Positions 37,086-57,630 of a stretch of DNA of 64,000 nt are shown here, one piece after another. Positions within the stretch are counted from its first letter, which is position 1, and every line of letters starts with the position of its first letter. The DNA is from a bacterium. GTDB lineage: Bacteria > UBA10199 > 2-02-FULL-44-16 > JAAZCA01. The stretch spans positions 5,082-69,081 of the forward strand of contig JBAZOP010000003.1 in NCBI GenBank assembly GCA_041648665.1, in the 5' to 3' direction. Both the position numbers and the translations under genes were made by a program. The notes beneath the pieces are model-generated. The model saw only the letters and a list, made by a program, of their open reading frames with translations, did no database searches and had not been told where the DNA came from.

Positions 37086-37595
37086 GTGGTCGAGCGAGCA
37101 ATCTCCGACGAAGAAGCGTGGGAGGTGCTGGAGCCTCACTGGCGGCTCGTCACCGAACGGTTCGAGAGGAAGGGCTTCGACGTGGACGGCTTCGGTCGGT
37201 TGGTGATCGATAGCTCGGCGCACGACTCGTGCAGGCACTTCGCCAAGACGTACACGGACGCGAGCGAGGTCATGCTCGCCCCCGAGATGGTGCACCTGCC
37301 CGTGCCGTCGATCCAGGCCATCATGGCTCACGAGCTGGGCCACGTTGTGGATGTGTCCAGGCCTGGGTACTGCTGGTACCGCAAAGGGGCGCTGGTCATC
37401 CTGCCCGAGCTTCCATCGAAAGGACTCCGCAAGCTCCTGCGTCAGTGGCAAGAGCGATCGGACGATGAGGTGGAGCGTGTGGCCGATGCGATTGCAGAGG
37501 TCGCAATGGGGCAAAAGATCGGCTATGTTGGCTCAAGCTCCTGCCTCGTCGAATGTCTCGGCAAGGGCAAGGCGCGACCAAAGGGGCTTCGATGA
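37086..37595 (+). CDS. HExxH zinc metallopeptidase-like protein
   Basis: IMAHELGHVVD. Confidence 0.45.
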   Translation: MVERAISDEEAWEVLEPHWRLVTERFERKGFDVDGFGRLVIDSSAHDSCRHFAKTYTDASEVMLAPEMVHLPVPSIQAIMAHELGHVVDVSRPGYCWYRKGALVILPELPSKGLRKLLRQWQERSDDEVERVADAIAEVAMGQKIGYVGSSSCLVECLGKGKARPKGLR

Positions 37596-37963
37596 ACAAT
37601 AGCAGCGTCGATACGAAAGAGGCGGAGAGCGCGCCCGTTTTTCCGGCGAGCGTTATCGGTGCGATGGCCGATGCGGTGAAGGATGATGAGTCCGAGCCGA
37701 TGTCGGACGAGGAGTTCTGGGCGAAGCTGACGGAGATGGCCACCCGGCTCGTCAAGCTCTGTGAAATCGAGCGCGACGTGATCAACGCGCACGAGCAGCG
37801 TGTCCTGGCTGCGCGAAGGTTTGCCGCAGCGATGAAGCGCGGGGACAAGCAGGACGCGACCGCGCAGCTGATTCGGTGGAGTCAGCTTGCCCCTCGCGTC
37901 GAGCATCACACCAGCCGTCTGACCACCGCGGCAGCGGAAGCACTTGCCGAGATCGAGGGTTGA
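37592..37963 (+). CDS. hypothetical protein
   Basis: Start is MNNSSV, overlapping the previous stop. Confidence 0.35.
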   Translation: MNNSSVDTKEAESAPVFPASVIGAMADAVKDDESEPMSDEEFWAKLTEMATRLVKLCEIERDVINAHEQRVLAARRFAAAMKRGDKQDATAQLIRWSQLAPRVEHHTSRLTTAAAEALAEIEG

Positions 37964-37965
37964 GG

Positions 37966-38418
37966 ATGGACGCCGATCGCATCACGGGGAATCTGTGGGT
38001 GGGCAGCGCGCCTCCGCCGAGTACGGGGCTTCGCCAGAAGTTCGACGTGCTCGTGCTGTGCGCGGAGGAGTACCAGCCGAAGTCGTACAACTTCCCGGGC
38101 GTGACCGTTGTGCATGCGGGGTTCGACGACACGCAGGAGCTGAGCCGCAAGGACAAGCAGGTTGTGCAGTCCGCGGCGTACCTCGTTCGGCAAGCGCTCG
38201 ACCGGAACATGCGTGTACTTGTCACCTGTCACGCCGGGCTCAACCGTTCAGCGCTTGTCGCGGGGCTCGCGCTGCGGCTCCCCGGGCGCGGGCGGTCCAC
38301 GCCTTCCTGTATGAATGGGGACGAGGTCGTGCACTTGCTGAAGTCGCGACGCGACCCCAACGCGCTGATGAACCCCCTCTTCCAGAAGATCGTTCGGCGG
38401 GCTCAGGTGTGTCGATAG
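37966..38418 (+). CDS. dual-specificity / Cys-based protein phosphatase
   Basis: VLVTCHAGLNRSA is a CX5R P-loop signature, in a protein of DUSP size (150 aa). Confidence 0.6.
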   Translation: MDADRITGNLWVGSAPPPSTGLRQKFDVLVLCAEEYQPKSYNFPGVTVVHAGFDDTQELSRKDKQVVQSAAYLVRQALDRNMRVLVTCHAGLNRSALVAGLALRLPGRGRSTPSCMNGDEVVHLLKSRRDPNALMNPLFQKIVRRAQVCR

Positions 38419-38567: not shown

Positions 38568-39107
38568 ATGCCGCTCCTCCTGACGAACGACGGGACCGCC
38601 TCCCTGGGCACTTTCAAGGGCACCCCGCAAACCGTTGCGCTGATGCGGGACTACGCGCTCGGCCCTGATGGCGAGCAGAACTTCTTCGTGCGGCAGTGCA
38701 CAGAAGCGATCATCCGGGACGTTTCGCCCAAGGACTACCTCTCCGAGATCCTGGCGCTGTACGGCTGGGCGAAGTCGCCCTTCCTGCGGTACACGAACGA
38801 CGCGCTGCATGTCGAGCAGGTGAAGTCTCCCTTCCGGGTCCTCACCGAGGTCCAGAAGACCGGCAAGGCCCTGGTGGACTGCGACTGCGTGACCGTGCTG
38901 CTCGCGACCATGGGGCTCGTGCTGGGCAGGGAAGTCGAGTTCGTCGTGGCGGGGTTCATGACCCCCGGCGTTTACACCCACGTGTTCCCTAGAATCCGTG
39001 AGCCGCGAAGCAAGGAATGGATCATCCTGGACACAGTTGCGGGCACCCGGGACGCTGAGATGGCCAGAAAGATCGTCACTTTCAAGACGTACCCCGTGGA
39101 TTCCTGA
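38568..39107 (+). CDS. putative transglutaminase-like / Cys peptidase-fold protein
   Basis: VDCDCVTVLLATMG is a candidate catalytic Cys segment. Confidence 0.25.
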   Translation: MPLLLTNDGTASLGTFKGTPQTVALMRDYALGPDGEQNFFVRQCTEAIIRDVSPKDYLSEILALYGWAKSPFLRYTNDALHVEQVKSPFRVLTEVQKTGKALVDCDCVTVLLATMGLVLGREVEFVVAGFMTPGVYTHVFPRIREPRSKEWIILDTVAGTRDAEMARKIVTFKTYPVDS

Positions 39108-39155: not shown

Positions 39156-39500
39156 ATGACCACAGTGTTTATCCCGGCGAAGAAGGCTCCGAGGACGCGG
39201 CTTTCCGGTTTCGGCGGCGTTTCGAGCCAGTCAATCTTCATGGCGACAAATAGGCCGAAGCCGATTCCTCGCGGGATGGGCGCGGCTGACGGCGCGGCGC
39301 TGGTGTCCGCAGCTCTGCGTCGTCCGCTTCAGGGTCTCGGCGCGCAGATGATCGCGGCCAAGTTCAACCCGATCCAGGCGCAGTTCACGCCCGTGAGCAC
39401 GTCTACAGACGGCGGCTCCACGACGGCGTGGCTGATCGGCGGGGTGGTCATCATCGCAGCGGTTGGTGGGCTCGTCTACCTGAGCACGAGGAAGAGGTAG
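39156..39500 (+). CDS. small tail-anchored membrane protein (TM followed by STRKR)
   Basis: C-terminal TM (WLIGGVVIIAAVGGLVYL) followed by a basic end. Confidence 0.4.
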   Translation: MTTVFIPAKKAPRTRLSGFGGVSSQSIFMATNRPKPIPRGMGAADGAALVSAALRRPLQGLGAQMIAAKFNPIQAQFTPVSTSTDGGSTTAWLIGGVVIIAAVGGLVYLSTRKR

Positions 39501-39504
39501 CGTC

Positions 39505-40377
39505 ATGAAGGTAGCCCGCTTCGGCCCTACTCCGATTTGCGGCGAGCCGCCCGCTGTGCCGAGTCCGTACGACGTGCAGCCCGGCGGCATGAACATGCAG
39601 GCGATGAGGCAAAGTACCATGCAATACGGAAGGCAGCTTCGTGGGCTCGGGGGCGGAGGCCACCATGGGGGCGGCGGTCATCACGGTGGGGGTGGCCACG
39701 GTGGCGGCGGAGGTCACCACTGGGGTGGCGGCGGGATGTACTGGGGTGGCTACCCGTACTACGACGGTCCGCGCACGGGCTTCTTCGAGACCGTGGTTGC
39801 CGACTGCGGTCCGAACTGCATCTGGGACGGCTACTCATGCCTGTGCCCGGACATGCCTCCGAAGCCGATCAAGCCCGAGGCCCCTGCCGCGGTGAAGGGT
39901 CTGCTCGGCCTGGGCGCGGTGCCACGATCGAAGTACCACCACGACTCGTGGTCGGGCGACGATCCCGCGGTGCTCGAAGCCGATGAGCAGGACGACGCGG
40001 TCGGCAACGGCATCTTCGACGGCGCGGGCGCGGCCCCTGTGCAGCACGCTGGCAACGGCGTGTTCGAGGCGAGCTACGCGGAGCCGGGCTACCTCTACAG
40101 GGAGCGCTTCGGGCAGCCCAGCGAGATCCTGGACGCGACAACGGGCAACCCCATCGTCTACCACCCCAACGCGGGACAGTCCTCGCACGAAGACATCCTG
40201 CGCACGTATCGCAGGTGGGACCTGGAGACGCCGCGGCACTACGGTCCCGCGCGCACGCCGCTCCAGGGGCTCGGGCAAGGGGCTTCCGAGACGACAGCTC
40301 TTCTGCCGTACGCCGTGGGAGGGATCCTTCTCGGCGTCGCGGCAGGCATCCTCTACACGGTCGTGAAAGGCAAGTGA
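39505..40377 (+). CDS. Gly/His-repeat protein with C-terminal TM
   Basis: Low-complexity GGGGHHGGGGHHGGGGHGGGGGHHWGGGG. C-terminal TM (LLPYAVGGILLGVAAGILYTVV). Confidence 0.45.
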   Translation: MKVARFGPTPICGEPPAVPSPYDVQPGGMNMQAMRQSTMQYGRQLRGLGGGGHHGGGGHHGGGGHGGGGGHHWGGGGMYWGGYPYYDGPRTGFFETVVADCGPNCIWDGYSCLCPDMPPKPIKPEAPAAVKGLLGLGAVPRSKYHHDSWSGDDPAVLEADEQDDAVGNGIFDGAGAAPVQHAGNGVFEASYAEPGYLYRERFGQPSEILDATTGNPIVYHPNAGQSSHEDILRTYRRWDLETPRHYGPARTPLQGLGQGASETTALLPYAVGGILLGVAAGILYTVVKGK

Positions 40378-40378
40378 C

Positions 40379-40753
40379 ATGGACGGCCTTGGCTCATACT
40401 TCAAGTCCTCGCCTCTCGACGGCGTTGCGATGGGTGCCTACTACGCTTCGCCGGTCCCGGCGATCGTCGCGCCCACCCCGATCCTCACCAAGTCGATCCA
40501 GCCCATCTCGTCTCTCGCAGGGACGAGCGGTCTGAGTTCGTTCGGGACAGGATCAATCCTGACCGTGGTGATTGCTGCGGCAGCCGGGTACTTCGTCGGC
40601 AAGCAGCTGGGCTACCCGGTCGCAGGCGCAGTCGCAACGGGGCTGCTCGGCTTGCCCGGCATGCTCGGCGTTGCGGTGTACTCCTCCTACAAGAGGAAGG
40701 GGCTCGCGGTTGCCAACCGCCGTCGCAGCCGTCGTCGTAGGAGCCGCCGATGA
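40379..40753 (+). CDS. Arg-tail membrane protein family member
   Basis: TM helix followed by YKRKGLAVANRRRSRRRRSRR. Confidence 0.5.
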   Translation: MDGLGSYFKSSPLDGVAMGAYYASPVPAIVAPTPILTKSIQPISSLAGTSGLSSFGTGSILTVVIAAAAGYFVGKQLGYPVAGAVATGLLGLPGMLGVAVYSSYKRKGLAVANRRRSRRRRSRR

Positions 40754-41367
40754 GCAAGAATCTCGCATGCTCGAACTGGTGCCAGTTGAACAGCAAGGGC
40801 AGCAGCGACGCGTACCTGCTGTGCCTCAACAAGTGCCCGCAGGAAGGCGTGAAGTGGTCGCCGCCGTCCTCGCTCACGTTCACGGGCAAGACGACTTCCG
40901 GGGTCAGCGTGCCCAGCCCGGTGGCCACGGCCTCCAAGACGATCTCGTCTTCGTCGATCACCCGGCTGCTTCCGACGAAGCCCGCGCCCAGCTTGGTCAT
41001 CGCGGGCAAGGCCTCTTCGGCGACCGCTGAGCAGAGCGCGCCGCTTCCCGACAGCATCTCCCCGTCGCTGGACCCGGGCCCAGGTCCGGGGATGGAGGCT
41101 GAGCTTCCGCCGTCCTGGCTTTCGCAAAACAAGCTGCTGGTCGCGGGGATCGCAGCCGCTGCCATCTTCGCGGGCGTGATGGTCGTGAGAAGCCGGAAGC
41201 GCGCTGTGGCGAATGGGGTAGCGTGGATCGACCGCCTGATTGCCCAGCTGGATGAGCCCAGCAAGCCGATAACGAAAGCCGAGATGAGGGCTCTCAAAGC
41301 CAAGCTCAGGAAGCGATTCAAGCCCGAGACGGGAAAGAGGAAGCGTCAGAAGAGGAGCGGTAGATGA
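40750..41367 (+). CDS. Cys-rich membrane protein with basic C-terminus
   Basis: TM (LLVAGIAAAAIFAGVMVV) followed by SRKRAVANG and a KRKRQKRSGR end. Confidence 0.45.
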   Translation: MSKNLACSNWCQLNSKGSSDAYLLCLNKCPQEGVKWSPPSSLTFTGKTTSGVSVPSPVATASKTISSSSITRLLPTKPAPSLVIAGKASSATAEQSAPLPDSISPSLDPGPGPGMEAELPPSWLSQNKLLVAGIAAAAIFAGVMVVRSRKRAVANGVAWIDRLIAQLDEPSKPITKAEMRALKAKLRKRFKPETGKRKRQKRSGR

Positions 41368-41720
41368 ACGCACTTGGAGCAGCCTTTGGCATATACGACC
41401 CTGCAAAAGTCGTTCGCGCGGCGAAGAACTTCATGGCCGTCACGGGCGGCGACGTGTCCACGCATGTCGTTGCAGCGCGGGCAGGGCTTCGCGGTCTCGG
41501 TGCGGATCCTGCCCCGGCCCCGGCTCCTGCAACGAGCACGGCAGGGGCGGGCACGGTGCTCGCCGTTGTGGGCGGGATCGTGCTGGTGGTGGTCGCGCTA
41601 CGCGGGGCAGCGGGCTGGTACATCGGCAAGCAGTTCAAGCGCCCGTATCTGGGGATCGCCGCGGGTGCGATCGGCGGCGCTCCTGGTCTCGGAATCCTTT
41701 CTCTCTTCCCCGGTAGGTGA
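41364..41720 (+). CDS. small membrane protein
   Basis: 118 aa with two hydrophobic segments. Confidence 0.4.
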   Translation: MNALGAAFGIYDPAKVVRAAKNFMAVTGGDVSTHVVAARAGLRGLGADPAPAPAPATSTAGAGTVLAVVGGIVLVVVALRGAAGWYIGKQFKRPYLGIAAGAIGGAPGLGILSLFPGR

Positions 41721-41723
41721 TTC

Positions 41724-42452
41724 ATGCCGCGCTACCTCCCCATCCGTTCGCCCTTCTACGCGCAGTTCGAGCGCTGGCCGTACACGCGCGGGCCGAACTA
41801 CACGCGGGCGATGTTCCGCGAGCAGGGGCCGGGCGGGTACTTCACGGCGCAGCCGATGAACCGGATGCCACCGCTTCTGGGGCTCGGGTACGTGGGGACG
41901 GGGGAGACTCCTGAGAACTGCACGAAGATTTGCACCGATGGGTGTGGGTCGCTCGACAAGGACTGCTTCAACGGCTGCTACAGCCAGTGTATGGGCATTT
42001 CGGTCCCTGTGACCCCCGACAACAAGAGGGAAGGCGAGACCATCGACTGCAACGCCGCGTGTGCTGGGAAGACCGGAGAGGCGCTCTCCAGGTGCGTGTT
42101 CGATTGCGGCACCGGACGCGCTGTACCGAAGTCTGCGCAGGCCGGTTTCTTCGCGGACTTCTGGTCGAGCCCGGTCAAGATGGTCGGCACGCTCGCCGTT
42201 GTGGGCGGGCTGCTGTGGTGGGTGACGAGCAGGAAGCGAGCGACGGCGAACCCTACGAAGCTCCGCGCTGGGGACACGGTTTATTTTCTGAGCGGGGAAA
42301 GAGAAGGGAAGCTCGCTCGCGTATCGAAGCGGTGGAAGGACAAAAACGGGCACGTTTGGGTGATCTTGAGGGAGCGCGAACCGGGCGCTTGGCAATGGCG
42401 CGCGCGCGAAAGGGATGTTCTCCGGTACGCGGTGAGCGTAGCAACTTTCTGA
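41724..42452 (+). CDS. Cys-rich membrane protein, family-related (SRKRATANP after TM)
   Basis: Multiple CxxxC pairs, a TM (LAVVGGLLWWV), then SRKRATANP and an extra C-terminal domain. Confidence 0.45.
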   Translation: MPRYLPIRSPFYAQFERWPYTRGPNYTRAMFREQGPGGYFTAQPMNRMPPLLGLGYVGTGETPENCTKICTDGCGSLDKDCFNGCYSQCMGISVPVTPDNKREGETIDCNAACAGKTGEALSRCVFDCGTGRAVPKSAQAGFFADFWSSPVKMVGTLAVVGGLLWWVTSRKRATANPTKLRAGDTVYFLSGEREGKLARVSKRWKDKNGHVWVILREREPGAWQWRARERDVLRYAVSVATF

Positions 42453-42462
42453 GGAAATCACG

Positions 42463-43116
42463 ATGAACAAGCACGGCGGCATCTTCAACGCTCTGTCTTC
42501 TCTCGGCTGCGCAGTCGGCTTGGGCGCAGACGCTCCGATCAAGAAGTCGTGTACGTTCGCGACGGGTCTGTACTCCGAGGGCGCGAAGGCGATCCAGCAG
42601 GTGCTCATCAGTCGCGGGGCCACCAAGCTCAAGGCTGACGGGCTGTGGGGACCGTGTTCCGAGAGCGCGTTCGAGAAGGTGACAGGCGGCAAGCTGACCC
42701 AGGCATCGATCCTGGCGCAGTTCAACATCAGCTGTAGCCCGTACATCAAGAACGTGATCGGCACGTCGTGCAGCAACGGCACCGACGCCTATACGCCGCC
42801 TGCCGTGAGCCCGGACGACATCTCGCCCAACATCCCGCCTACCGAGAAGGCTCCTCCTGTCGGCACCGTCGTGTGCCCCCCTGGCACCGATCCGATCATG
42901 CAAGGCACCCAGGTCATGTGCCAAGCGCCGGTCGTGGCGAACCAGCCTCCTCCCCCCGTTGTGGCCCCCGTGCGCGCGAACCTGATTCCCGGCGTGCCCA
43001 ACATGTACCTGGGCATCGGAGTCGGCGTGCTGGTGCTCGGCGGGCTTGCGTACTTCATGCTCAAGCCGAAGACGGCGGCGGCGAATAGGCGGCGGCACCG
43101 AAGGCATCACAGGTAG
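42463..43116 (+). CDS. Arg-tail family: PG-binding-like Cys-rich protein, TM, then AAANRRRHRRHHR
   Basis: N-terminal MNKHGGIFNALSSLG, DGLWGPCSESAFEKV (PG_binding_1-like), TM helix and poly-Arg/His tail. Confidence 0.55.
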   Translation: MNKHGGIFNALSSLGCAVGLGADAPIKKSCTFATGLYSEGAKAIQQVLISRGATKLKADGLWGPCSESAFEKVTGGKLTQASILAQFNISCSPYIKNVIGTSCSNGTDAYTPPAVSPDDISPNIPPTEKAPPVGTVVCPPGTDPIMQGTQVMCQAPVVANQPPPPVVAPVRANLIPGVPNMYLGIGVGVLVLGGLAYFMLKPKTAAANRRRHRRHHR

Positions 43117-43173
43117 CCGATGGATGGCGTCTTCAACACCAACTCGAATCGGTCGTAGACAAAGGACACGGAC

Positions 43174-43938
43174 ATGTCGATTTTTGGAAGCCGAAAGAAG
43201 CAGCTGCGCGGATGCGGATGCCAGGGCGTCGGCCTGGGCGCAGTCGAAGTGCCGTGGTGGTGCTGGAGTACCGAGGGCTTCAAGGCATGTTCCGACGAGT
43301 CCCTCTCTTGGGCGCAGAACGCGTGCAAGGCCGACTGGGAGAACGGTGAGAAGGTCACCAACTCGGTCAACAACGAGCCGTACGCGAACTACGCCGACTG
43401 TGTGGCGCGCACTCAGCAGTACAGGTTCGAGAATGGCTGCATGCCCAAGTGCCCCTCGCAGCAGCCTGGGACGGCGACCACGGCAACGACAACCGGCGGC
43501 TCCGTCGTGTGCCCTCCTGGCCAGTGGCCCGACGCGTCATTCAACAGCTGCGTGAAAAGCTCTGGGGCGTGCTCCGACGCGAACGTGATCAAGAGCGTGC
43601 AGGCGCAGATCGGCACCACGGTGGACGGCAAGTGGGGTCCGAACAGCGCAGCAGCTCTCAAGGCATCCGGCAAGACGTACCAGCAGCTTGCCCCCGGGTG
43701 CTCAGGAGCGGTGCCCGGCGGCGGCACGGGTGGAGGGAGCGGCACGTACAAGCCCCCTGCGACAACCAAGACGCCGATCGGTACGCAACCGGGAGTCGCG
43801 CAGGCCAGCGGTTTTCTCGGCATCCCGCTCATCGCGTGGGCCGGGGTCGCAGCAGTCGCGGGCGTACTGCTGTACGCGAAGTCGAGGAAGAAGCAGGCGG
43901 TCGCAAACAGGCGTCGTCGGCGTCACCATCGCAGGTAG
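43174..43938 (+). CDS. Arg-tail family member (AVANRRRRRHHRR)
   Basis: VDGKWGPNSAAALK PG-binding-like segment, TM and tail. Confidence 0.55.
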   Translation: MSIFGSRKKQLRGCGCQGVGLGAVEVPWWCWSTEGFKACSDESLSWAQNACKADWENGEKVTNSVNNEPYANYADCVARTQQYRFENGCMPKCPSQQPGTATTATTTGGSVVCPPGQWPDASFNSCVKSSGACSDANVIKSVQAQIGTTVDGKWGPNSAAALKASGKTYQQLAPGCSGAVPGGGTGGGSGTYKPPATTKTPIGTQPGVAQASGFLGIPLIAWAGVAAVAGVLLYAKSRKKQAVANRRRRRHHRR

Positions 43939-43947
43939 GAGACCACA

Positions 43948-44694
43948 ATGAGTCGCATGGGAATCTTCACGGCGCTCAACGGCGCAGGCTTCGGCGGCTT
44001 CCTGGGGCTCGGCCTGACGCCAGCAGAGCAGTACGCGGCAACGTGCAAGCAGAACTGCGAGAACATCCCCGGCACGCAGACCGTTGCGGAGTGCCAAGCC
44101 GACTGCGACAAGTTCACCGCCGCTGCGGTGACATGCGCTCCAGCGTGCGCACAGTTTCGCCAGGACTCGAACGAGTGGGTCTACTGCATCCAGAAGTGCC
44201 ACGGGCTGACCCCTTCGCAGGCGTACGACGAAGCGCAGAAGTCGCTGTGTTCCAAGCAGGGCATGACGTACTCGTGGCTTGAGAACAAGTGCGTCGATAC
44301 GAACGCGTATAAGAGCTGTCCCGCTGGGACCGTCTACGCGATCTACCCTGACGGCAATCGGTGCATCGGCATCAACACCGATCTGACGAAGACGACGTGC
44401 CCTGCTGGCACCTCTCTGAAGATCGTGCCGTCCACGACTGGGGGGCCATCGGGGCAGGCATGTGTGTCCCCTGTGACGCCGACCCCTGCGAAGAAGACGC
44501 CTGTTCCGGTGAAGCCCAATCCTGTCATCGTAGGAGACGGTGGCGGCGGGGGCGGGACCTTGCTTGCTGGCATGGGCACCGGCTGGATGCTCGTGGGCGT
44601 CGGCGCGCTTGCGCTCATCGGAATCGTCGTGCTCGCGAAGAAAAAGAAGAAGCCGCTGGGCGCTGCGCCCAACAGGCGGCGAAGAAGGAGATAG
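43948..44694 (+). CDS. Arg-tail family member (AAPNRRRRRR)
   Basis: MSRMGIFTALNGAG N-terminus, Cys-rich domain, Gly run, TM, KKKKK and tail. Confidence 0.55.
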   Translation: MSRMGIFTALNGAGFGGFLGLGLTPAEQYAATCKQNCENIPGTQTVAECQADCDKFTAAAVTCAPACAQFRQDSNEWVYCIQKCHGLTPSQAYDEAQKSLCSKQGMTYSWLENKCVDTNAYKSCPAGTVYAIYPDGNRCIGINTDLTKTTCPAGTSLKIVPSTTGGPSGQACVSPVTPTPAKKTPVPVKPNPVIVGDGGGGGGTLLAGMGTGWMLVGVGALALIGIVVLAKKKKKPLGAAPNRRRRRR

Positions 44695-44696
44695 TC

Positions 44697-45350
44697 ATGC
44701 GTGAGGGCGGCATTTTTGATCTTCCGTCAGCGCTCGGCATCGAAGTCGCGATGAGCGACGCCGTCACCGAGATGGACAGCTGCAACCTCTCCGGGACGTT
44801 CTCTGAATCGGCCCAGTGGCTCCAGAACCTCCTGAAGGAGAAGGGCGCACTGTCCCTCGTCGTGGACGGCAAGTGGGGGCCGTGCTCCGAGAGCGCGTTC
44901 TACGGACTGTTCGGCGTTCGCACGAGCCAAGCCTCCGTTGCGGAGAAGACCGGCCTGTCGTGTGCGAAGTTCGTGAACTACTACGGTACCGTTGGCGGAA
45001 ACTGCAACGGCAGCGACATCATCTACGAGCAGCAGGGTACGCCGCCTCCCGCTCCGACCGGGACGAAGAAGGTCGCCGTCATCAAGAAGGCTGAGCCCAA
45101 GCCGGTCAGCCTTTCCGTGGTGAAGTCCCCGTTCAAAATGGCGACGGCAACGCCCCCCACACAGGTCGTGCAAGCCGACACAGCTGGCACTTCCAAGACG
45201 TGGATCTACGTGATCGGAGGGCTCGCGCTGCTCGGCATCGTCGGCTTTTTCTTCCTCAAGAAGAAGTCCCCTGCTCCGGTCGCGCCGCCCCCCGCCATCC
45301 CCAACAGGCGTCATCGCCGCCGGTCTCACCGCATTCGGCTTCTCAAGTAA
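44697..45350 (+). CDS. Arg-tail family member (AIPNRRHRRRSHR)
   Basis: MREGGIFDLPSALG N-terminus, VVDGKWGPCSESAF, TM and tail. Confidence 0.55.
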   Translation: MREGGIFDLPSALGIEVAMSDAVTEMDSCNLSGTFSESAQWLQNLLKEKGALSLVVDGKWGPCSESAFYGLFGVRTSQASVAEKTGLSCAKFVNYYGTVGGNCNGSDIIYEQQGTPPPAPTGTKKVAVIKKAEPKPVSLSVVKSPFKMATATPPTQVVQADTAGTSKTWIYVIGGLALLGIVGFFFLKKKSPAPVAPPPAIPNRRHRRRSHRIRLLK

Positions 45351-45514
45351 CCCGCGCCAGACGACCGTCTCTTGTTGGAACGGGCCACTGTCCTGCGTCT
45401 TCGGGGCGATTGAGTCCGGGCTTCGACATGGGCCGCGGAATCTAGCCGTTGCGGGCTCAGTGTCAAGGCCTCGTGCGCTGGACGAAACCCGTCATCCCGT
45501 GGATAATCAGGCCC

Positions 45515-46384
45515 ATGGCTAATCGTGGTGGCATCTTCAAGGGTACGGCTCTCGGGCTTCTTGGCGCTGGCAGCATCGAATGCACGGGCACGACGCTGTT
45601 CAACGCGGTCAAGGCTGCACTTGTGGCCAAGGGCTACACCGGGCTCGCTCTCAAGAACAGCTGGGACGGCTGCTTCCAGGCGGCGATCGTCAAGGAGCTT
45701 GGTCATCCGATGCTCACGGTCGGCGACGTGCGTACGCTCACCGGCAGCGGCTGCACGAAGGGCTACTTCGATGCGGGCCTGAACGACATGAACCCGCTCG
45801 TCGCGGGCGCTGGGCCGACCGACGTGGCCTCGTGCTCGGACGGAAGCGACGTGAAGGGCAAGCTGCCGACGACGATCGATCCGTCTGGACCGCTGAGCAC
45901 GGACTGCTTGGGTGGCTGCGCGAAGCTGCCGTTTCTGTCTGCGGACTGGCAGGGGTGCGTCACCAAGTGCGGCGGCAGCATCCTTCAGCCCCCGGCTCCT
46001 ACGCCCGGCACTCCCGCGTGCGCTCCCGGGATGTTCTACGACACGAACGCGGCCAGCTGCATGCTCATGATCGATCCGCTCAACTGCGGATCGAAGTGCA
46101 ACCAGTTCCCGGCGTTCAGCTCCGAGTGGGTACAGTGCATGGTCAACTGCGGCGCGAAGGCAGTCGGTCCGCAGGGCACCCCCGTTGTGGTGCCCGGCAC
46201 GAACCCTCCCGTGAAGACCGGCATGTCGATGGCAGACGTGTTCGGCAAGAACTGGCTGGTCATCGCCGCAGCGCTTGCGATCGGTGTCGGCGCAGTCGTC
46301 TACTTCAACAACAAGAAGCGGAAGGAACGACTGGGGGCAGTCGCAGCGCCGAACCGAAGGCGTCGCCGTCGTCATCACCGCTAG
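45515..46384 (+). CDS. Arg-tail family member (AAPNRRRRRRHHR)
   Basis: MANRGGIFKGTALG N-terminus, Cys-rich domain, TM and tail. Confidence 0.55.
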   Translation: MANRGGIFKGTALGLLGAGSIECTGTTLFNAVKAALVAKGYTGLALKNSWDGCFQAAIVKELGHPMLTVGDVRTLTGSGCTKGYFDAGLNDMNPLVAGAGPTDVASCSDGSDVKGKLPTTIDPSGPLSTDCLGGCAKLPFLSADWQGCVTKCGGSILQPPAPTPGTPACAPGMFYDTNAASCMLMIDPLNCGSKCNQFPAFSSEWVQCMVNCGAKAVGPQGTPVVVPGTNPPVKTGMSMADVFGKNWLVIAAALAIGVGAVVYFNNKKRKERLGAVAAPNRRRRRRHHR

Positions 46385-46393
46385 GAGATCACC

Positions 46394-47395
46394 ATGCCGC
46401 TGTCCGATGTCGAATCGTTGGCGAAGCAGGTGCAGCCGCTCTACCCGGAGATGGCGACGCCGGAAGATCGGCTCATGGCGGCGTACAAGGCCGCGCGCGC
46501 AGCGTTGATCGAGACGTTGCCCAAAGGCACGACCGTTGATCCGTTGGCAGCAACGATCGCGCAGCAGACCGTGGAGCAGCAGTTCGATGCGCGCGTCCCG
46601 GCTCTTCAGTCGTCCTTCCAGAACAACACCGATCTCTCGGCTGACGATGCGGCGAAGCTGACCGCTGAGCAGAGCAGGCAGCACTACCTGTACAAGTACC
46701 TCATCGCGTGCGACGGGCTCGGCCTGTACGCGAGCGGGTACGCAAAGCAGCTCGATGCCAACGGGGAGTTCCCGGGCGACTACAACAAGAGCGTCGAGGA
46801 CAGAATCCGCATCTTTTCCGAGATCACGCATGCGCACGGGACAGGGGCACTCGTCGGTCTGGTGAACAACGAAGCCGTCGTGCAGCAGGCTGCCCAGCGA
46901 GCCGCGATGTCGGGGCTCGGCGGAGTCGGGCAGGGGCAGGTGACCACGTTCATCGGATCCAAGGGCATGACGATCACCCTGCCGTCTTCGAGCGGCGCAG
47001 CCGGGCTGGGCGCACCCTTGCCATGGCAGGCCTGGGTTTTGATCGGTGTCGGCACCATCGTCGCAGGCGTCGTCATCTACCTGCTGGGAAGCAAGCGGAT
47101 CGAGACGACAGCTGAGACGACCAGAATCATCTGCCTCAAGCTCATCGAGAGCGGGGACAAGGCAGCCGCCAAGAGCTGCATCGACCTCCAGAAGGAAGCG
47201 ACAAACATCGGCGGCGTTGGCGACATCATTGGCAAGGAGACCATGCAGACGCTCACGAAGTACGCGTTCGTCGGTGGTCTGCTCATCCTCACCGTGATGT
47301 TCCTGCCGACGATCGTGGGCTCCGTCACCCAGGCGCAGACGACGTACCAGATGCACAAGGCTGTGCGCGCGGCAGCGAACCGTCGAAGGCGATGA
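46394..47395 (+). CDS. Arg-tail family member, divergent (AAANRRRR)
   Basis: 333 aa with two TM helices and a C-terminal KAVRAAANRRRR. Confidence 0.5.
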   Translation: MPLSDVESLAKQVQPLYPEMATPEDRLMAAYKAARAALIETLPKGTTVDPLAATIAQQTVEQQFDARVPALQSSFQNNTDLSADDAAKLTAEQSRQHYLYKYLIACDGLGLYASGYAKQLDANGEFPGDYNKSVEDRIRIFSEITHAHGTGALVGLVNNEAVVQQAAQRAAMSGLGGVGQGQVTTFIGSKGMTITLPSSSGAAGLGAPLPWQAWVLIGVGTIVAGVVIYLLGSKRIETTAETTRIICLKLIESGDKAAAKSCIDLQKEATNIGGVGDIIGKETMQTLTKYAFVGGLLILTVMFLPTIVGSVTQAQTTYQMHKAVRAAANRRRR

Positions 47396-47796
47396 TGCGG
47401 TACTCGGTCCACAACGTGATGCGCGGCGGGTTCGACTACTACGACGGGCCGGATGTCACTCCGATCAACGATGACCAGCCCACGCCCTCGTTCGACTCCT
47501 CCATCCGCACCCCGCTCGGGATCCCCGCGAGCCTCGCAGGCAGGCCTCTGCCTCCCAACGCCTCCATCCGCGGGCACGGCGCGACGGCGCAAGGCGCGGT
47601 GTCTTCGGGCAAGCGCGGATCGTGGTCCACCACCGCAGCCAGGAATGGCGGCATGCCGTCTGGCATCGGCGCTGCGCTCGGGCTCGACGACTCCACGAGC
47701 AGGATGCTCCAGGCCGTTGTGGGCATCGTGGGGTTCGCCGGAATCTTCTATCTCATCACCCGTTTCGGCGACAGGGAGCGTAAACGTGTCCGCTAG
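47392..47796 (+). CDS. small membrane protein with basic C-terminus
   Basis: TM (VVGIVGFAGIFYLI) followed by GDRERKRVR. Confidence 0.4.
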   Translation: MMRYSVHNVMRGGFDYYDGPDVTPINDDQPTPSFDSSIRTPLGIPASLAGRPLPPNASIRGHGATAQGAVSSGKRGSWSTTAARNGGMPSGIGAALGLDDSTSRMLQAVVGIVGFAGIFYLITRFGDRERKRVR

Positions 47797-48355
47797 CCGC
47801 AACTTCTCGACCGAGCCGTCGCGTCGCACCGTTGTTCTCGACCTACCCGAGATATACGAACGTGCAAAGCAGATGCGCAAGGTCTTCCAGGGTGAGAAGC
47901 CAAAGAAGCGCGTAGAGATGCCATTTACGTGGCCCAGCTACTTCGTGTACGTGGGCCGCGCGCTCTCCGAGCTGTACTTCTCCGACAAGAAGCTCAACGG
48001 CGGGAAGTGGGAGATTTACAAGCACGTTGCGGAGGCTGGGCAGGATCTCTACGTCAATCCGAAGATCACGACGCTCATCAAGGATGACGGGCGCAAGATG
48101 CAGTACCGCGGCGACCGCTTCTGTCTGGAGGGCGCGATGCCGAAGGACATCGCCGTGCTCGCAGAGAACAGGGGCGTGCAGGTTGTGACGAAGAGCGGCG
48201 AATACTACGAGATTCGCATGCCGCACTCCACAACGGCGGCAGCGGTGCACCCCGAGACGGGCGAGACGTTCCTGCTTGTCTACTCGAAGGAAGGTGTGCA
48301 TTTCATCATCACGGGCGACGAGCTGACGATTGGGAAGGACGGCATTGCCGGATGA
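47786..48355 (+). CDS. hypothetical protein
   Basis: GTG start 8 nt after GGGAG, overlapping the upstream gene by 11 nt. Confidence 0.4.
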   Translation: MSASRNFSTEPSRRTVVLDLPEIYERAKQMRKVFQGEKPKKRVEMPFTWPSYFVYVGRALSELYFSDKKLNGGKWEIYKHVAEAGQDLYVNPKITTLIKDDGRKMQYRGDRFCLEGAMPKDIAVLAENRGVQVVTKSGEYYEIRMPHSTTAAAVHPETGETFLLVYSKEGVHFIITGDELTIGKDGIAG

Positions 48356-48872: not shown

Positions 48873-51305
48873 ATGGCACGAGGAAGGATTTTCCGGATCA
48901 CGAAGGCCCAGGCAAAGGCCTACGAAATCCTGGATCCGCCCTCGACGCGCTCGGCCCGCCCGAACCCAGGCGTCACGGCCATCATGGGGATCACCAACGG
49001 TCGCGGAGCTGCGAAGCGCGGGGCTCGCAAGGGCAAGGCTCGCAAGTCGGTCCGCATGCTCGGCGGCATCAGCTGCCCCAAGACGGCTCCGAAGAAGCAC
49101 CGCATGGCAGGGGCGACGAAGCGCTCAGACTACGCGCTGCCGCAGTGCTTCCACTACCCGGTGCGCACGCGCGGCAAGGCTTCCGTCTTGAAGATCCGGC
49201 GAGCCCTGACCCGCTACGGCACGCACAAGAGCAGGTACTCGCCCGCCGTCCGCAGGCAGATCGAGCGCGGGATCGCGAAGGCTGCGAAAGAAGCCGGGAT
49301 GACGAGTCCCGTGGCGATGAAGTACCGCAAGAAGTTCGCACTGGCGAATGCAAAAGGAGAAAGCCCCATGTTCGTCGTCCCCAATGCCGCGCGCAAGCGC
49401 GCAAGGCGCAAGTCCAAGTCGCGCAAGCTGTCCCCGGCTCATGCCTTCTTCTTGTACCCGACCACCAAGGGCAAGATCGGCGCGTCGGCGTCCCCGAACC
49501 GCAAGCGCAAGGCGCGCAAGGCCCGGAAGGGTGCTCGCAAGCTGAAGTTTGGCTCGCCCGCATGGCAGAAGAAGTTCAACCCGCTGTACGGCGGCAAGGG
49601 CAAGACGCGCAAGGGCAAGAAGTCGACTGCCAAGCGTCGGACCGCGCGTCGGATGGTTACGTCGGGCGTTCGTCGCGTGACCGTTCGTCGTGGCAAGGGC
49701 AAGCGCCGCAGCGGTCTGAGCGTCGCTCTGCGCAACATGTCGATCCTTCCTGCGGTGCCGAACAAGCGTCGCCGCTCGACCAAGAAGTACAGCGCCGCGT
49801 GGCATCGCAAGATGACGCATGCGGTCGCGAACCGCTATCGTCGGCGCGCTCGGCGCAACGCAGAGGGCGAGGGGATCTTCTTCCCGGGCGAGGGCGGAGG
49901 TTCGTTCATGGACGAGCCCTCCACCATCATGTCCGAGGCGCAGGAGAAGAAGCTCGCTGCTGCCGCCACTGCCGAAGGCATCGCTCAAGACATGTTCAAG
50001 ACTCAGGCGGATTTCGACGCGTGGTTCGCGAACATGTACAAGAGCAAGACGTTCCGCAAGTTCTACATGTCATTCAGACGAAGGCGCACTGCGCTCTCCA
50101 AGCGAGGTAGGAAGATGGCAACCAGGAAGAAGGGCAAGAAGGCTGCGGGCCGCAAGCCTCGCAAGGGCAAGAAGGCTCGCAAGGCACGCAAGGGAACCCG
50201 CAAGCTGAAGTTCGGCTCGCCCGCATGGCGCAAGAAGTACGCGCGCAAGATCGCGGCGGGTCGGCGCAAGGCGAAGCGGCACGGCACGCGCAAGGCTGCG
50301 AAGCGTCGCAAGAGCGGCTCGCGCAGCAAGCGCCGGGTCACGCGTCGTCGAGGCACCGCACGTCGTCGGAGCGCAGCGCGCCGCCGCACGGGTGGTCGTA
50401 GGCTCAAGTTCGGCTCGAAGGCGTACAACAAGAAGTACGCGGCCAAGCGCAAGCGCAACCTTCGGTCGGCGAAGCGTCACGGCAAGCGCAGGGCTCGCCG
50501 GAACTTCAGCTTCCGTGCCATCCCGAACCAGCTGCTCATGCGCGTCAAGGCCATGGCGATCCCTGGGCTCATCGCGCTCGGTGGCTACGCCATCCATCGC
50601 GTTGTGACCAAGGTTCTGTCCAAGGCCATCGGCGGCACGGTCACGAGCTACGCCGAACCCCTGAGCGGGCTCGTCGCGATCGCGGCTGGCACCTGGGCGG
50701 TTGGCAAGTTCCTGCCGCAGCACTCTCATGCTGCGATCATGGGCATGGCCGTCAGCTTCGGCGCGTTGCTCCTCAAGAGCTTCCTGCCCGACGTTGCGAC
50801 CTACCTGGGCATGGGCTCGGTCGGATCGCAGAACCAGCGCGTGCGCTGGGGCATGCAGGGACCGGAGTTCATGCAGGCGGCTGCTGGCCCGGAGTTCATG
50901 CAGGCGGCTGCTGGCCCGGGGTTCCTCCAGGCGGCTGCTGACTACTACCAGCCCGCGAGCGGGATCGGCGAGTACGTCAGCGATGGTTCGCTCTCTCCCG
51001 TGAGCGACTTCGGCGAGTACGTCGCGAGCAATCTCGACGTGAGCGGCTGGGGTGACTACGAGGTGAGCACCCAGTACCAGACCGGCGCGGACGGCTACGG
51101 AGCCATCAACGACGGGATCCAGCCGGGCGGCAATCTCGATCAGCAGTTCAACATCATGGAAGCGGCGGCGGGGCTCGGTCTGAACAGCCCCGGCAGCTCG
51201 TCCACCTACGTCCCGCACGAGGGCATGCGCAACGTGGCCTCTGCGGAATCGAGCGACAGCTCGGGCGTGTTCGATGTCGGCGGAGGCAACGGCGTCCTGG
51301 GCTGA
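48873..51305 (+). CDS. 810-aa polybasic (protamine/histone-like) repeat protein with TM segments and an acidic C-terminal domain
   Basis: The first ~550 aa are extremely Lys/Arg-rich, with three ARKARKGxRKLKFGSPAW(Q/R)KK(F/Y)-type repeats. These are followed by hydrophobic helices and then GPEFMQAAAGPEFMQAAAGPGFLQAAA repeats in an acidic tail. The 30-bp element lies 10 nt upstream. Confidence 0.6.
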   Translation: MARGRIFRITKAQAKAYEILDPPSTRSARPNPGVTAIMGITNGRGAAKRGARKGKARKSVRMLGGISCPKTAPKKHRMAGATKRSDYALPQCFHYPVRTRGKASVLKIRRALTRYGTHKSRYSPAVRRQIERGIAKAAKEAGMTSPVAMKYRKKFALANAKGESPMFVVPNAARKRARRKSKSRKLSPAHAFFLYPTTKGKIGASASPNRKRKARKARKGARKLKFGSPAWQKKFNPLYGGKGKTRKGKKSTAKRRTARRMVTSGVRRVTVRRGKGKRRSGLSVALRNMSILPAVPNKRRRSTKKYSAAWHRKMTHAVANRYRRRARRNAEGEGIFFPGEGGGSFMDEPSTIMSEAQEKKLAAAATAEGIAQDMFKTQADFDAWFANMYKSKTFRKFYMSFRRRRTALSKRGRKMATRKKGKKAAGRKPRKGKKARKARKGTRKLKFGSPAWRKKYARKIAAGRRKAKRHGTRKAAKRRKSGSRSKRRVTRRRGTARRRSAARRRTGGRRLKFGSKAYNKKYAAKRKRNLRSAKRHGKRRARRNFSFRAIPNQLLMRVKAMAIPGLIALGGYAIHRVVTKVLSKAIGGTVTSYAEPLSGLVAIAAGTWAVGKFLPQHSHAAIMGMAVSFGALLLKSFLPDVATYLGMGSVGSQNQRVRWGMQGPEFMQAAAGPEFMQAAAGPGFLQAAADYYQPASGIGEYVSDGSLSPVSDFGEYVASNLDVSGWGDYEVSTQYQTGADGYGAINDGIQPGGNLDQQFNIMEAAAGLGLNSPGSSSTYVPHEGMRNVASAESSDSSGVFDVGGGNGVLG

Positions 51306-51434: not shown

Positions 51435-52199
51435 ATGGCAAAGATTCTCAACATCCGCGAACGTGTTCATCAACCCTTTCGTGACGCGCTGTGTCGGACA
51501 GCCGGTCTGTTTCAGGGTGCCCTGAATCAGACGACCGACTTGTTCATCACGCAGGGGCGTGACGAGGGCTTCACGAACCTCAAGACGAGCGCCGTGCTTC
51601 CGAACGACTCGTCCATGATCATCCTCGCGGCGAGGGTGCTTCAGTGGTTCCGCGCTCCGGTGCGCCGCAACTTCAATCCGGATGGCACCGTTCTGACGAA
51701 CGGCGACTACGGTCCCATCGGCCTCGCGGCGTGGGTGTGGCCGAACGGTGCGGGCGCAGTCGCGCTCGGCAACGCCCCGGCGAACTACGAGGACGTGTAC
51801 CGCATGCACTGGCAGTGCGCCGAGGGTCTGTTCTGGACGATCGGCGCTGGCGAGAAGGACTCGCTGCGCAGCATGCCGACGATGTACTTCCCCATGGGCG
51901 GCGGTCTGCACGGGGACATCGGCGGGGCGACGGACCTCATCCACTTCAACAACGGCTCACCGAGCCACACGTCGATCCTTCGGATCGCGCGCGCTATCAC
52001 CATCACCCCGCGCCAGCTGATCAAGGCGCAGGTGACCGCCGTGTCGTACCCGGCTGGTGGAAACCAGACGATCTTCGGCACTTCGACGGCGCAGGGGCGC
52101 GACATGCTGAACCCGATCAGCAACCTGAACTGCGTCGATGCGATGGGCAAGGTCGTTGCCCTCGTGATCGACGGGTTGCTGAGCCGCGACGTTCAGTAA
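51435..52199 (+). CDS. candidate coat protein (paralog A)
   Basis: 254 aa starting MAKILNIRERVHQPFRDALCRTAGL. About 70 % identical to the next gene by eye. Confidence 0.35.
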   Translation: MAKILNIRERVHQPFRDALCRTAGLFQGALNQTTDLFITQGRDEGFTNLKTSAVLPNDSSMIILAARVLQWFRAPVRRNFNPDGTVLTNGDYGPIGLAAWVWPNGAGAVALGNAPANYEDVYRMHWQCAEGLFWTIGAGEKDSLRSMPTMYFPMGGGLHGDIGGATDLIHFNNGSPSHTSILRIARAITITPRQLIKAQVTAVSYPAGGNQTIFGTSTAQGRDMLNPISNLNCVDAMGKVVALVIDGLLSRDVQ

Positions 52200-57619: not shown

Positions 57620-57630
57620 GAGGATAGGGG

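Follow-up and report, generated by a model that had tools for sequence, protein, structure and literature searches.

Poly-arginine C-termini behind an A-x-[A/P]-N prefix in an array of predicted membrane proteins from a putative large bacterial virus

Arginine-rich protein termini that bind the viral genome are known. Such arginine-rich motifs (ARMs) are found in the C-terminal domain of the hepatitis B virus core protein, in the N-terminal arms of the capsid proteins of nodaviruses, bromoviruses and circoviruses and in adenovirus protein VII and peptide mu, and in the ARM of human immunodeficiency virus (HIV) Rev (...RRNRRRRW...) an asparagine is essential. Baculoviruses possess a protamine-like genome-binding protein, P6.9, on which the phosphatase 38K acts (PMC5899202). 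Small membrane proteins of virions are a second point of reference: in the sections of PMC6414509 that deal with them, VP10 and VP13 of HCIV-1 and HHIV-2 are described as C-terminally anchored virion membrane proteins with N-terminal parts under the capsomers. Here we describe an array of 13 genes, g1 to g13, in a stretch of 64,000 nucleotides (contig JBAZOP010000003.1, positions 5,082 to 69,081; hereafter the window, with positions counted from its first nucleotide). Seven of their products end in [A/V]-x-[A/P]-N followed by a run of arginines. The source of the window appears, from its gene content, to be an undescribed, uncultivated large bacterial virus; its own contig measures 134 kb and those of its relatives 95-177 kb.

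The 13 genes are tightly packed on the + strand across 39156-47796. Many have AGGAG ribosome-binding sites, ATGA-type overlaps occur and the GC content at third codon positions (GC3) is 0.74-0.86; the coordinates match independent gene calls on the identical public contig. A hydrophobic helix stands at or near the C-terminus of all 13 products. The seven proteins with the motif (g3 and g7-g12) terminate in [A/V]-x-[A/P]-N-poly-Arg behind a predicted transmembrane (TM) helix and a Lys/Arg linker, and their tails carry a net charge of +6 to +12 within 18-30 residues. Two further proteins, g4 and g6, have the prefix (AVAN and ATAN) followed by a basic extension of 50-66 residues, and four (g1, g2, g5 and g13) lack the motif, the chain stopping 4-11 residues past the helix with a short basic end. 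The original prediction, made from the letters of the window, held that every gene here ends the same way, which is too broad for the four proteins without the motif and for the two that run on past it; the individual termini that it quoted, from g3 and g7-g12, were all recovered at their + strand positions.

Among the motif-bearing proteins, g3 (40379-40753; 124 aa) has two TM helices and the tail AVANRRRSRRRRSRR, with the motif at nt 40706-40717. The product of g7 (42463-43116; 217 aa), identical to the NCBI hypothetical protein WC683_02430, starts with MNKHGGIF..LG and contains DGLWGPCSESA before the TM helix and the tail AAANRRRHRRHHR. Its paralogue g10 (44697-45350; 217 aa) starts with MREGGIF and closes with a TM helix and AIPNRRHRRRSHRIRLLK. 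Between them lie g8 (43174-43938; 254 aa) and g9 (43948-44694; 248 aa). The product of g8 contains 12 Cys and DGKWGPNSAAA and closes with a TM helix and AVANRRRRRHHRR; that of g9 starts with MSRMGIF, its 14 Cys include twin CX3C hairpin motifs, and AAPNRRRRRR follows its TM helix. The product of g11 (45515-46384; 289 aa) starts with MANRGGIF, contains 14 Cys and two CX3C-X13-CX3C units and closes with a TM helix and AAPNRRRRRRHHR. Finally, g12 (46394-47395; 333 aa), kept in all related loci, encodes two TM helices and the tail AAANRRRR.

We then asked how far the motif exceeds chance. The pattern [AP]N[RK][RKH][RKH] has ten matches in the six-frame translation of the 64 kb, compared with a mean of 2.1 in mononucleotide shuffles of the window, and nine of the ten lie in real genes between 40.7 and 49.8 kb. 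Within the last 30 residues the motif is present in 7 of the 13 array proteins; after residue shuffling the mean was 0.10, and none of 5000 shuffles reached seven. Shuffling was limited to these last 30 residues of each protein, so that the Arg richness was retained, and the order of the motif is thus non-random. The codons vary between copies (GCC AAC CGC, GCG AAT AGG, CCC AAC AGG, CCG AAC CGA). Since the choice of codons for Ala/Pro, Asn and Arg varies, selection acts on the peptide and not on a DNA repeat. A DNA-level repeat or a Shine-Dalgarno artefact behind the Arg codons was rejected on these two grounds, the codon variation and the survival of the ordered motif in a composition-preserving test.

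Syntenic arrays were found in related loci, labelled L001 (17 kb), L004 (the same contig as L008; 96 kb, IMG/VR), L005 (177 kb), L006 (138 kb), L007 (116 kb), L009 (54 kb), L010, L013, L015, L017 and the distant L018. The motif is kept at the protein level in nine related uncultivated contigs of 17-177 kb, and motif tails are present in L001, L004, L006, L007, L010 and L017, where the putative capsid protein is 55-71% identical to that of the window. The tails of relatives include AVPNRRRRHRRGRK, AVANRRLHRRSRRCRRNCGE, LVANKRSWRAGRRRRRRR, AFPNRRRGRKSRRRGGRRSRR and KANRRRR at the C-terminus, AVANRRKRRKRKR with further residues behind it, and AVANRRRRRRRKARRAHRRSR at the end of the g3 homologue in L017. 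Identity between L018 and the window is 41% for the g0 protein and 28% for g14, the genes on either side of the array, and yet at least eight TM proteins in L018 (1700-20393) terminate in ...[A/T]-x-N-RRRRRR.

Among the 85 profile hits that have a C-terminal helix, 36 contain N[RK][RKH][RKH], and about 20 profile hits have the C-terminal module in common only, their N-domains being unrelated. When 33 tails were aligned on the asparagine, position -3 was Ala in 24 and position -1 was Ala in 20 or Pro in 10, Asn was present in all 33, and Arg followed. Asn directly precedes 43 of the 238 basic runs in the loci, a 6.4-fold enrichment. In some relatives the asparagine is followed by residues other than Arg, either Cys-Gly-Glu and the stop (ATPNCGE, RRNCGE) or proline (ANPSRRRRRR). 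Conservation is therefore stronger in the Asn-containing prefix than in the run of arginines. Terminal N-C-G-E behind the A-x-[A/P]-N prefix was seen in P0278-P0308 and in L004 (1053-1901) and L006 (2504-3382), with ends such as ATPNCGE, RRHCRRNCGYRSNCGE and VPNCGE.

The motif recurs outside the array. Between the array and the putative capsid genes lies g16 (48873-51305, +), which encodes a protein of 810 aa that we refer to as the core protein. Its N-terminal 553 residues have a net charge of +163 and contain ASPNRKRK, AVPNKRRR, AVANRYRRR and three copies of KFGS(P/K)AW.KK(F/Y). Three hydrophobic segments (nt 50532-50786) follow the polybasic part, and the remaining 172 residues are acidic and Gly-rich, with a net charge of -16 and the end GVFDVGGGNGVLG. 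Homologues of 557-877 aa are encoded in L001 (9918-12488), L004 (7248-9881), L005 (7201-9831), L006 (7281-9875) and L009 (7565-9841), among others. In the ten loci compared, a part charged +100 to +177 is followed mostly by three hydrophobic segments (four in a few) and in most by an acidic part of -6 to -16 that ends in ...GIFDVGG.NGV(L/F)G or similar; this acidic Gly-rich domain has GEY(V/F) repeats in most loci. The polybasic, non-membrane part holds 3-10 x-[T/A]-P-N-RRRR units with no adjacent helix. The core proteins of L005 and L009 have 5-10 tandem x-[T/A/D]-[P/A/D]-N-RRRR(R) units spaced by 13-15 residues, for example ATPNRRRRRTTTRRR and YTDNRRRRRSHVQFSDNRRRRRSRKRY. Repetition of the motif in a region without a helix argues against a membrane sorting signal of the sortase type.

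The layouts of array and core proteins are mirror images, with GIF/N-domain, one TM helix and poly-Arg in the former, and a polybasic part, three hydrophobic segments and an acidic GIF end in the latter. Since the number of hydrophobic segments is odd in both, poly-Arg and the GIF peptide would come to lie on opposite faces of the membrane in both. Basic load is complementary between clades. L013 and L015 (1-10000) have membrane proteins with short Lys-rich stubs and no poly-Arg, together with large core proteins of +126 to +160, and L018 carries the load in its tails; its two short core-like proteins have basic heads of about 25 residues and start with MRRNPRYVVINRRRRRGRR and MARRRRRSRRMRSNRRHRRRHG.

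Extensions behind the tail are found in g4, g6 and some homologues. In g4 (40750-41367; 205 aa) a twin CX3C unit and a TM helix precede RKR-AVAN-GVAW (AVAN at nt 41203-41214) and a basic extension of 50 residues; in g6 (41724-42452; 242 aa) ten Cys in CX3C pairs and a TM helix precede RKR-ATAN-PTKL (ATAN at nt 42240-42251) and an extension of 66 residues. The tail extension of P0002, ...AAANKRKRRYLKPGSKAWHKKW, contains KPGSKAWHKKW, like the repeats of g16, and the part of P0341 after ATANRRRRHRRRR resembles by eye the conserved ...ALPECYxYP... N-domain of the core protein. The extension of g6 (42240-42452) reads ...LRAGDTVYFLSGEREGKLARVSKRWKDKNGHVWVIL... after ATAN and faintly matches the L24 ribosomal protein's KOW motif (E 0.18); the C-terminal extension of P0343 looks similar. 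Both hint at small nucleic-acid-binding domains on the tail side.

The four proteins without the motif are g1 (39156-39500; 114 aa), in which a short RKR end follows the C-terminal TM helix (nt 39426-39482), g2 (39505-40377; 290 aa), g5 (41364-41720; 118 aa), with two TM helices, and g13 (47392-47796; 134 aa), which has a C-terminal TM helix and a short basic end and is kept in relatives. The product of g2, 60% identical to its homologue in L001, has a Gly/His-rich N-terminal part, three GLG motifs and GNGIF/GNGVF motifs, and its C-terminal TM helix is followed by the end VVKGK. The array had been read as at least ten paralogous genes. All-vs-all BLASTP of the array proteins relates only four pairs outside helix and tail, namely g7 and g10 (E 3e-21), g7 and g11 (E 0.007), g9 and g11 (E 0.002, through the CX3C-X13-CX3C unit) and g8 and g10 (E 0.02, through the DGxWGPxSxxA segment); the family members thus align outside their Arg runs in these pairs, and the remaining pairs show no detectable relation. 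This makes the array a collection of diverse membrane proteins that share a C-terminal module, rather than ten paralogues.

Twin CX3C units (CX3C-X13/14-CX3C, often ...(S/D)xEWVxC..KC) are found in g4 (40750-40850), g6 (~41920-42100), g9 (~44040-44200) and g11 (~45960-46180) and look like disulfide- or metal-stabilised helical hairpins. As these Cys-rich domains sit on proteins without a signal peptide, their site of oxidation becomes a question; no Erv1-type oxidase was seen within the window.

Shared peptides are present at the N-termini too. A basic-G(G)-I-F-x5-L-G motif stands at the start of g7-g11 (42463, 43174, 43948, 44697, 45515), as had been pointed out before for g7, g9, g10 and g11, with g8 carrying a variant; it also occurs in L001, L004, L006 and L007 and is triplicated in P0006. 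Related ends close every core protein (...GIFDVGG.NGV(L/F)G; ~51260-51302 in g16) and every homologue of g14 (...KDGI(V/A)G; ~48335-48352), and the L018 clade has MSYHGMG or MTYHGSLG as its N-terminal label instead. By its distribution the GIF peptide may be a docking or targeting peptide. The tripeptide GLG, often as (L/R)-x-G-L-G, occurs 14 times in the array proteins compared with 3.0 +/- 1.7 expected from residue shuffles, and shows no such enrichment in 19 other proteins of the window (6 vs 3.9); its context presumably resembles the adenovirus-protease-like (M/I/L)XGX-G site. Within the first 35 residues of the array proteins the highest hydropathy over 12 residues (Kyte-Doolittle) does not exceed 1.64, and charged residues follow GIF. 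A lipoprotein or Sec signal peptide was rejected, as there is no lipobox, the hydropathy is weak and charges fall in the would-be h-region; the earlier statement that none of these proteins has an N-terminal signal peptide thus agrees with the hydropathy, which is too weak for a classical one in any N-terminus.

Three proteins, g7, g8 and g10, share the segment xxAxxxQxxLxxxGxxxLxxDGxWGPxSxxA, including the DG(L/K)WGPxSxxA stretch that had been likened to a peptidoglycan (PG)-binding domain. The likeness holds at the profile level: with a g7-family profile (A3) as query, a search of 1.84 billion representatives brings up multi-repeat proteins of PG_binding_1 type through positions ~36-80 (P0290, 1.2e-11; P0297, 3.6e-10; also P0309, P0318, P0322 and others), their nature being judged by sequence pattern and not by a Pfam scan. 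It does not extend to the Pfam model itself, since PF01471 (PG_binding_1) gave no match at E<=1 among ten family members. Matches of array proteins to PHROG endolysins have E values of 0.04-0.05, and one protein of L005 combines two annotated PG_binding_1 domains with a TM helix and MTPNRRRRR units.

Searches of the array proteins against Pfam, PHROGs and NCBIfam gave no significant family. Matches to LPXTG_anchor, FixQ, BofA and similar models are at the level of the helix and were rejected as compositional. The only score above a curated cutoff is that of TIGR01167 (LPXTG_anchor) on g10 (E 4.7e-4, model positions 6-32 only), and on g10 and g11 the alignments of TIGR01167 and PF00746 are confined to model positions 6-32 and 18-42, which correspond to the helix with its basic end. 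An LPXTG pentapeptide precedes no helix in the array proteins. The order here, TM helix, Lys/Arg linker, AxAN and poly-Arg, differs from that of PEP-CTERM, MYXO-CTERM and PGF-CTERM, and no NCBIfam model of these matched. Nor does AxAN look like a signal peptidase I (AxA) site, which lies on the trans side of an h-region and does not admit Pro at -1: Pro stands at -1 in 10 of 33 tails, and the motif is in a basic segment on the presumed cis side.

The genomic setting is that of a putative structural gene cluster. In all related loci that span the region, the 13 TM proteins are encoded directly upstream of putative capsid genes. These comprise a putative major capsid protein (51435-52199, +; 254 aa), a tandem paralogue 74% identical to it (52278-53096, +) and a second conserved capsid-region protein (53202-54185, +; 327 aa). 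The 254-aa and 327-aa proteins are the most conserved of all; their environmental homologues, 284 and 382 in number and without annotation, lie on contigs that reach 177 kb. Foldseek of a capsid model against BFVD gave no significant match, so the assignment of the fold is tentative, and PDB sequence searches with the two capsid candidates gave none either; from their models, both are tentatively jelly-roll/β-sandwich capsid proteins. The putative capsid proteins are not acidic (pI 8.5, 9.0 and 6.2). The virion would probably consist of a jelly-roll protein shell over an internal lipid membrane around a protein-condensed genome. Between array and core gene lies g14 (47786-48355, +; ~189 aa, ending ...KDGIAG), which encodes a soluble protein, the best conserved of the module apart from the capsid proteins and present even in L018.

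The host is probably bacterial, judging from a sigma-70 gene, an NlpC/P60 gene and Shine-Dalgarno sites. A eukaryotic giant-virus origin was rejected in view of clear AGGAG sites, ATGA overlaps and these same two genes. The window also encodes an AEP primase, an AAA_25 helicase and an SNF2-type helicase. A PHROGs scan of the window found no tailed-phage genes, no tRNAs were found in it, and no FtsK/HerA-type packaging ATPase was detected as a Pfam match or Walker A candidate in these 64 kb, half of the contig, apart from the AAA_25 helicase. In tblastn against 50,697 GenBank phage records (INPHARED), no match was obtained with any of three queries, namely the 626-aa protein, the putative capsid protein and g7. 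The literature searched held no description of the virus group or the motif, which does not prove that none exists.

We tentatively favour, with confidence somewhat short of even, the reading that the array encodes C-terminally anchored internal-membrane proteins whose Arg-rich tails bind the genome. Contact of the poly-Arg tails with DNA inside an internal virion membrane had been offered in the original prediction as an alternative; it fits the evidence best, and it is from context that we infer the virion location, membrane topology and DNA binding of the array proteins. On this reading, g1-g13 would be the virus's set of small virion membrane proteins, each helix-anchored at or near its C-terminus. 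The variable, Cys-rich and partly PG_binding_1-like N-domain with its GIF...LG peptide would face the capsid side of the membrane, and the basic linker with the [A/V]-x-[A/P]-N-R-R-R-R(-H-H-R) tail would project into the genome compartment, AxAN opening a longer basic extension on that side in g4 and g6. Together with the polybasic domain of g16 (~550 residues), the tails would bind and neutralise double-stranded DNA (dsDNA) and tether it to the membrane, and the invariant Asn may serve as a helix or turn cap or as a base-contacting residue.

Several observations are in line with this. The array adjoins the putative capsid genes, the core protein has the mirror-image layout, and HCIV-1 and HHIV-2 provide a precedent. 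Runs of at least five Arg/Lys residues that are terminal or repeated in a structural protein, as in ARMs, are found in the tails and in the core protein. Tail extensions are taken from the core protein or are nucleic-acid-binding in look (P0002, P0341, g6), and basic charge is distributed in a complementary way between L013/L015 and L018. Other points weigh against tails on the genome. After normal insertion into the host membrane a tail of +8 to +12 should stay cytoplasmic, and PRD1-type vesicle formation would then put it on the capsid side, not the DNA side. As such a tail should not cross an energised membrane, the alternatives are tails on the cytoplasmic or capsid side, or membrane assembly around an already condensed genome. 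Cys-rich, PG-binding-like domains are more naturally periplasmic. The strict Asn, and AxAN/xPN followed by terminal Cys-Gly-Glu, exceed what charge neutralisation needs, the clade of L013 and L015 manages without poly-Arg tails, and there is the packaging ATPase that was not found in this half of the contig.

Strict conservation of the Asn in front of variable downstream parts (poly-Arg, a folded extension or Cys-Gly-Glu) is also what a processing site would show, an explanation that is unlikely but is the strongest rival. Here [A/V]-x-[A/P]-N, and perhaps GLG, would be cut by a viral maturation protease. Free poly-Arg peptides or extensions might be released into the genome compartment, the tails might be removed after scaffolding, or self-cleavage might occur at Asn. 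The adenovirus protease makes peptide mu and protein VII. The spacing of 13-15 residues in the L005 and L009 core proteins resembles a polyprotein of basic peptides, and the GLG enrichment of the array points the same way.

Two candidate enzymes are encoded just upstream of the array. The first, a candidate processing peptidase with an HExxH motif (37086-37595, +; 169 aa), lies 1.6 kb upstream and matches PF13699 (eCIS_core/DUF4157) at a borderline E 1.2e-4 (22.6 bits, cutoff 22); AIMAHE(L/A)GH and the position upstream of the array are invariant in L016 and L017. The second, g0 (38568-39107, +; 179 aa), is directly adjacent to the array and is 41-70% identical in L001, L016, L017 and L018; its invariant Cys105, His138 and Asp155 look like a papain/transglutaminase-type triad. 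They flank a dual-specificity-phosphatase-like protein (37876-38418, +) with HCxxGxxRS (Pfam DSPc, E 9e-6, below the gathering cutoff), whose gene adjoins the array in L016 and L017 too, and all three are syntenic there (L016, 4273-6386; L017, 8001-10306). When the HExxH protein and g0 were each used alone in pattern scans of IMG/VR there was no match, and the metagenome scan then picked up these two syntenic relatives.

For neither candidate can the specificity be deduced. In the PDB the HExxH profile meets only an insignificant HtpX match (E 0.65), and g0 matches no family and, as a profile, no PDB entry. Neither has a predicted signal or helix for the tail compartment, and many tails extend only 4-9 residues beyond Asn, so that little would be released. 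Cleavage is moreover compatible with DNA binding by the products and need not compete with it.

Next in probability, and likewise doubtful, the tails may stay on the cytoplasmic face. They would obey the positive-inside rule and bind anionic lipids (phosphatidylglycerol, cardiolipin) or the inner surface of the capsid or scaffold, recruiting lipid and shell to virus-specific membrane patches, with periplasmic or lumenal N-domains. The tails are indeed strongly positive and lie behind the helix, many Cys and a PG_binding_1-like segment are typical of extracytoplasmic proteins, and the N-terminal segment of about 20 residues ends in GLG, with small residues at -3 and -1 as at signal-peptidase sites. 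The L013/L015 clade also copes with ordinary short Lys-rich ends. However, the segment past GIF is weakly hydrophobic and tolerates Asp, Lys and Glu, and so offers no usable h-region; GIF and GLG are moreover found inside proteins, with three copies in P0006, and at the C-terminal end of the core protein. A helix at the extreme C-terminus implies post-translational, tail-anchored insertion, and g1, g2, g7-g11 and g13 do have one helix that ends 5-30 residues before the C-terminus. The tails of tail-anchored proteins are short and weakly charged, and those here have a net charge of +8 to +12. YidC- or Get-type insertion is not expected for tails so highly charged. The putative capsid proteins, as noted, are not acidic, and the motif inside the +163 domain of the core protein is left unexplained.

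A more speculative scheme, which we consider rather improbable, is a virion 'address-label' system in a hitherto overlooked lineage of membrane-containing bacterial viruses of about 100-180 kb. An N-terminal label (basic-GGIF...LG...GLG, or MSYHGMG in a sister clade) and a C-terminal one (TM, A-x-[A/P]-N and poly-Arg) would mark the structural proteins, the Asn would be read or cut by the upstream HExxH or Cys-His-Asp protein, the tails and the membrane-anchored core protein would condense the genome, and lipid, then shell, would assemble around it. DNA would then not be pumped into a preformed vesicle, and the assembly route would have no precedent among bacterial viruses.

It is quite improbable that the array lies outside any virion, in a plasmid-like or integrative element or a bacterial locus, and encodes host-envelope or superinfection-exclusion membrane proteins. 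Contigs of this group were binned into metagenome-assembled genomes (MAGs) of several phyla, an integrase-domain gene lies at the edge of L008, and none of the hallmark genes for terminase, portal or packaging ATPase turned up in the window. On the other hand, in every case the array stands directly upstream of the core gene and of the genes for the two best-conserved, putative β-sandwich proteins, and phage-like genes are present (primase, helicases, sigma factor and NlpC/P60, and in L005 an SLT domain with PG_binding). No ribosomal or housekeeping genes were seen. One of the relatives, L004/L008, belongs to the viral contigs of IMG/VR, and the source of L009 is NCBI assembly GCA_012974725.1. 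The MAG bins of L010-L015 are mutually inconsistent, Myxococcales, Pirellulales (two), Pseudomonadota/Pseudomonadales (two) and even the methanogens of Methanomicrobiales, which suggests mis-binned viral contigs.

A dedicated sorting signal, in which a sortase-, exosortase- or rhombosortase-like enzyme cuts the C-terminus and attaches the protein to wall, lipid or virion, was the first suggestion of the original prediction and is hardly credible: a helix with a basic cluster at the extreme C-terminus of many unrelated proteins and the LPXTG_anchor match on the g10 helix speak for it, but the signature is on the wrong side of the helix, signal peptides are lacking, no Pfam or NCBIfam sorting-signal model fits the array C-termini, no sortase, exosortase or rhombosortase was found by Pfam among ~60 open reading frames scanned in the window, the motif is tandem in the non-membrane basic core domain, and the homologues retrieved all come from environmental or MAG contigs that lack annotation, none of them from surroundings recognisable as a bacterial chromosome.

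Further genes surround the structural module. Auxiliary genes at 1269-3679 (-), 18685-19296 (-), 19568-20143 (-) and 57628-58323 (+) encode sugar-nucleotide enzymes (nucleotidyl transferase and GDP-mannose 4,6-dehydratase-like), an NlpC/P60 peptidase, a protein with sigma-70 region 2 and one with a DnaJ domain. In most relatives examined (L005-L009) the DnaJ gene is kept downstream of the capsid genes, followed by glycosyltransferases in L006 and L008. IS605/TnpB-type genes (OrfB_IS605, Cas12f1-like_TNB) lie in or beside the structural module in L005 (2816-4276), L007 (6339-7739, -) and L018 (316-1611, -).

Should the tails bind the genome, the array would be, as far as we found, the first case of many virion membrane proteins each with an Arg-rich DNA-binding tail, and it would provide a direct physical link from genome to internal membrane and, via the N-domains, to the capsid. 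The coordination of genome, membrane and shell is poorly understood in membrane-containing viruses, for which a conserved and easily mutated module of ten residues would be a handle. A membrane-anchored DNA-condensing protein would itself be unusual for a bacterial virus. Together with the N-terminal motifs, the strict Asn may point to a new code for processing or targeting. The element appears to stand for a group of bacterial viruses that is of considerable size, distributed worldwide and without annotation, with more than 280 capsid-protein clusters, none of them among 50,697 GenBank phage records, genomes several times larger than those of any known single-jelly-roll membrane virus and a protamine-like core protein.

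Compared with known systems, the array shares the tripartite C-terminus of LPXTG, PEP-CTERM, MYXO-CTERM and PGF-CTERM proteins in that it is common to otherwise unrelated proteins. In sortase-type signals, however, the order is signature, helix and basic cluster, and here it is helix, basic linker, signature and poly-Arg, with the signature also found where there is no helix. The PG_binding_1 (PF01471) domains of endolysins and of virion-associated lytic proteins of PRD1-type phages differ from the array segment, which is a single divergent repeat with four invariant Cys, below the Pfam threshold and fused to a membrane anchor rather than a hydrolase. The phosphatase-like gene beside the array may be compared with that of baculovirus 38K (PMC5899202). 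SPV1 is a virus of an archaeal hyperthermophile with a genome of 20 kb, and no membrane anchor is described for its nucleocapsid protein VP1; in our case the host is probably bacterial, the match in capsid fold is weak and there is no sequence similarity. VP10 and VP13 of HCIV-1 and HHIV-2, as well as A55 of STIV, as far as the relevant sections of PMC6414509 describe them, are likewise small, have a single C-terminal TM helix and no signal peptide and are encoded near capsid genes. Those sections do not describe poly-Arg, AxAN or GIF/GLG; the genomes of these viruses do not exceed ~30 kb, in contrast to contigs of 95-177 kb here, and no sequence similarity is detectable. With ARMs and protamine-like proteins the tails have in common terminal runs of 5-10 Arg, repetition in the core protein, an Asn beside Arg as in Rev and, judging from sequence, the likely role of binding and neutralising encapsidated nucleic acid. 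Unlike ARMs, the motif has its own A-x-[A/P]-N prefix and occurs in what appears to be a dsDNA virus of bacteria. What is new, as far as we found, is the fusion of such a terminus with its own prefix behind a TM helix on 7-10 proteins per genome, and its repetition in a membrane-anchored protamine-like protein.

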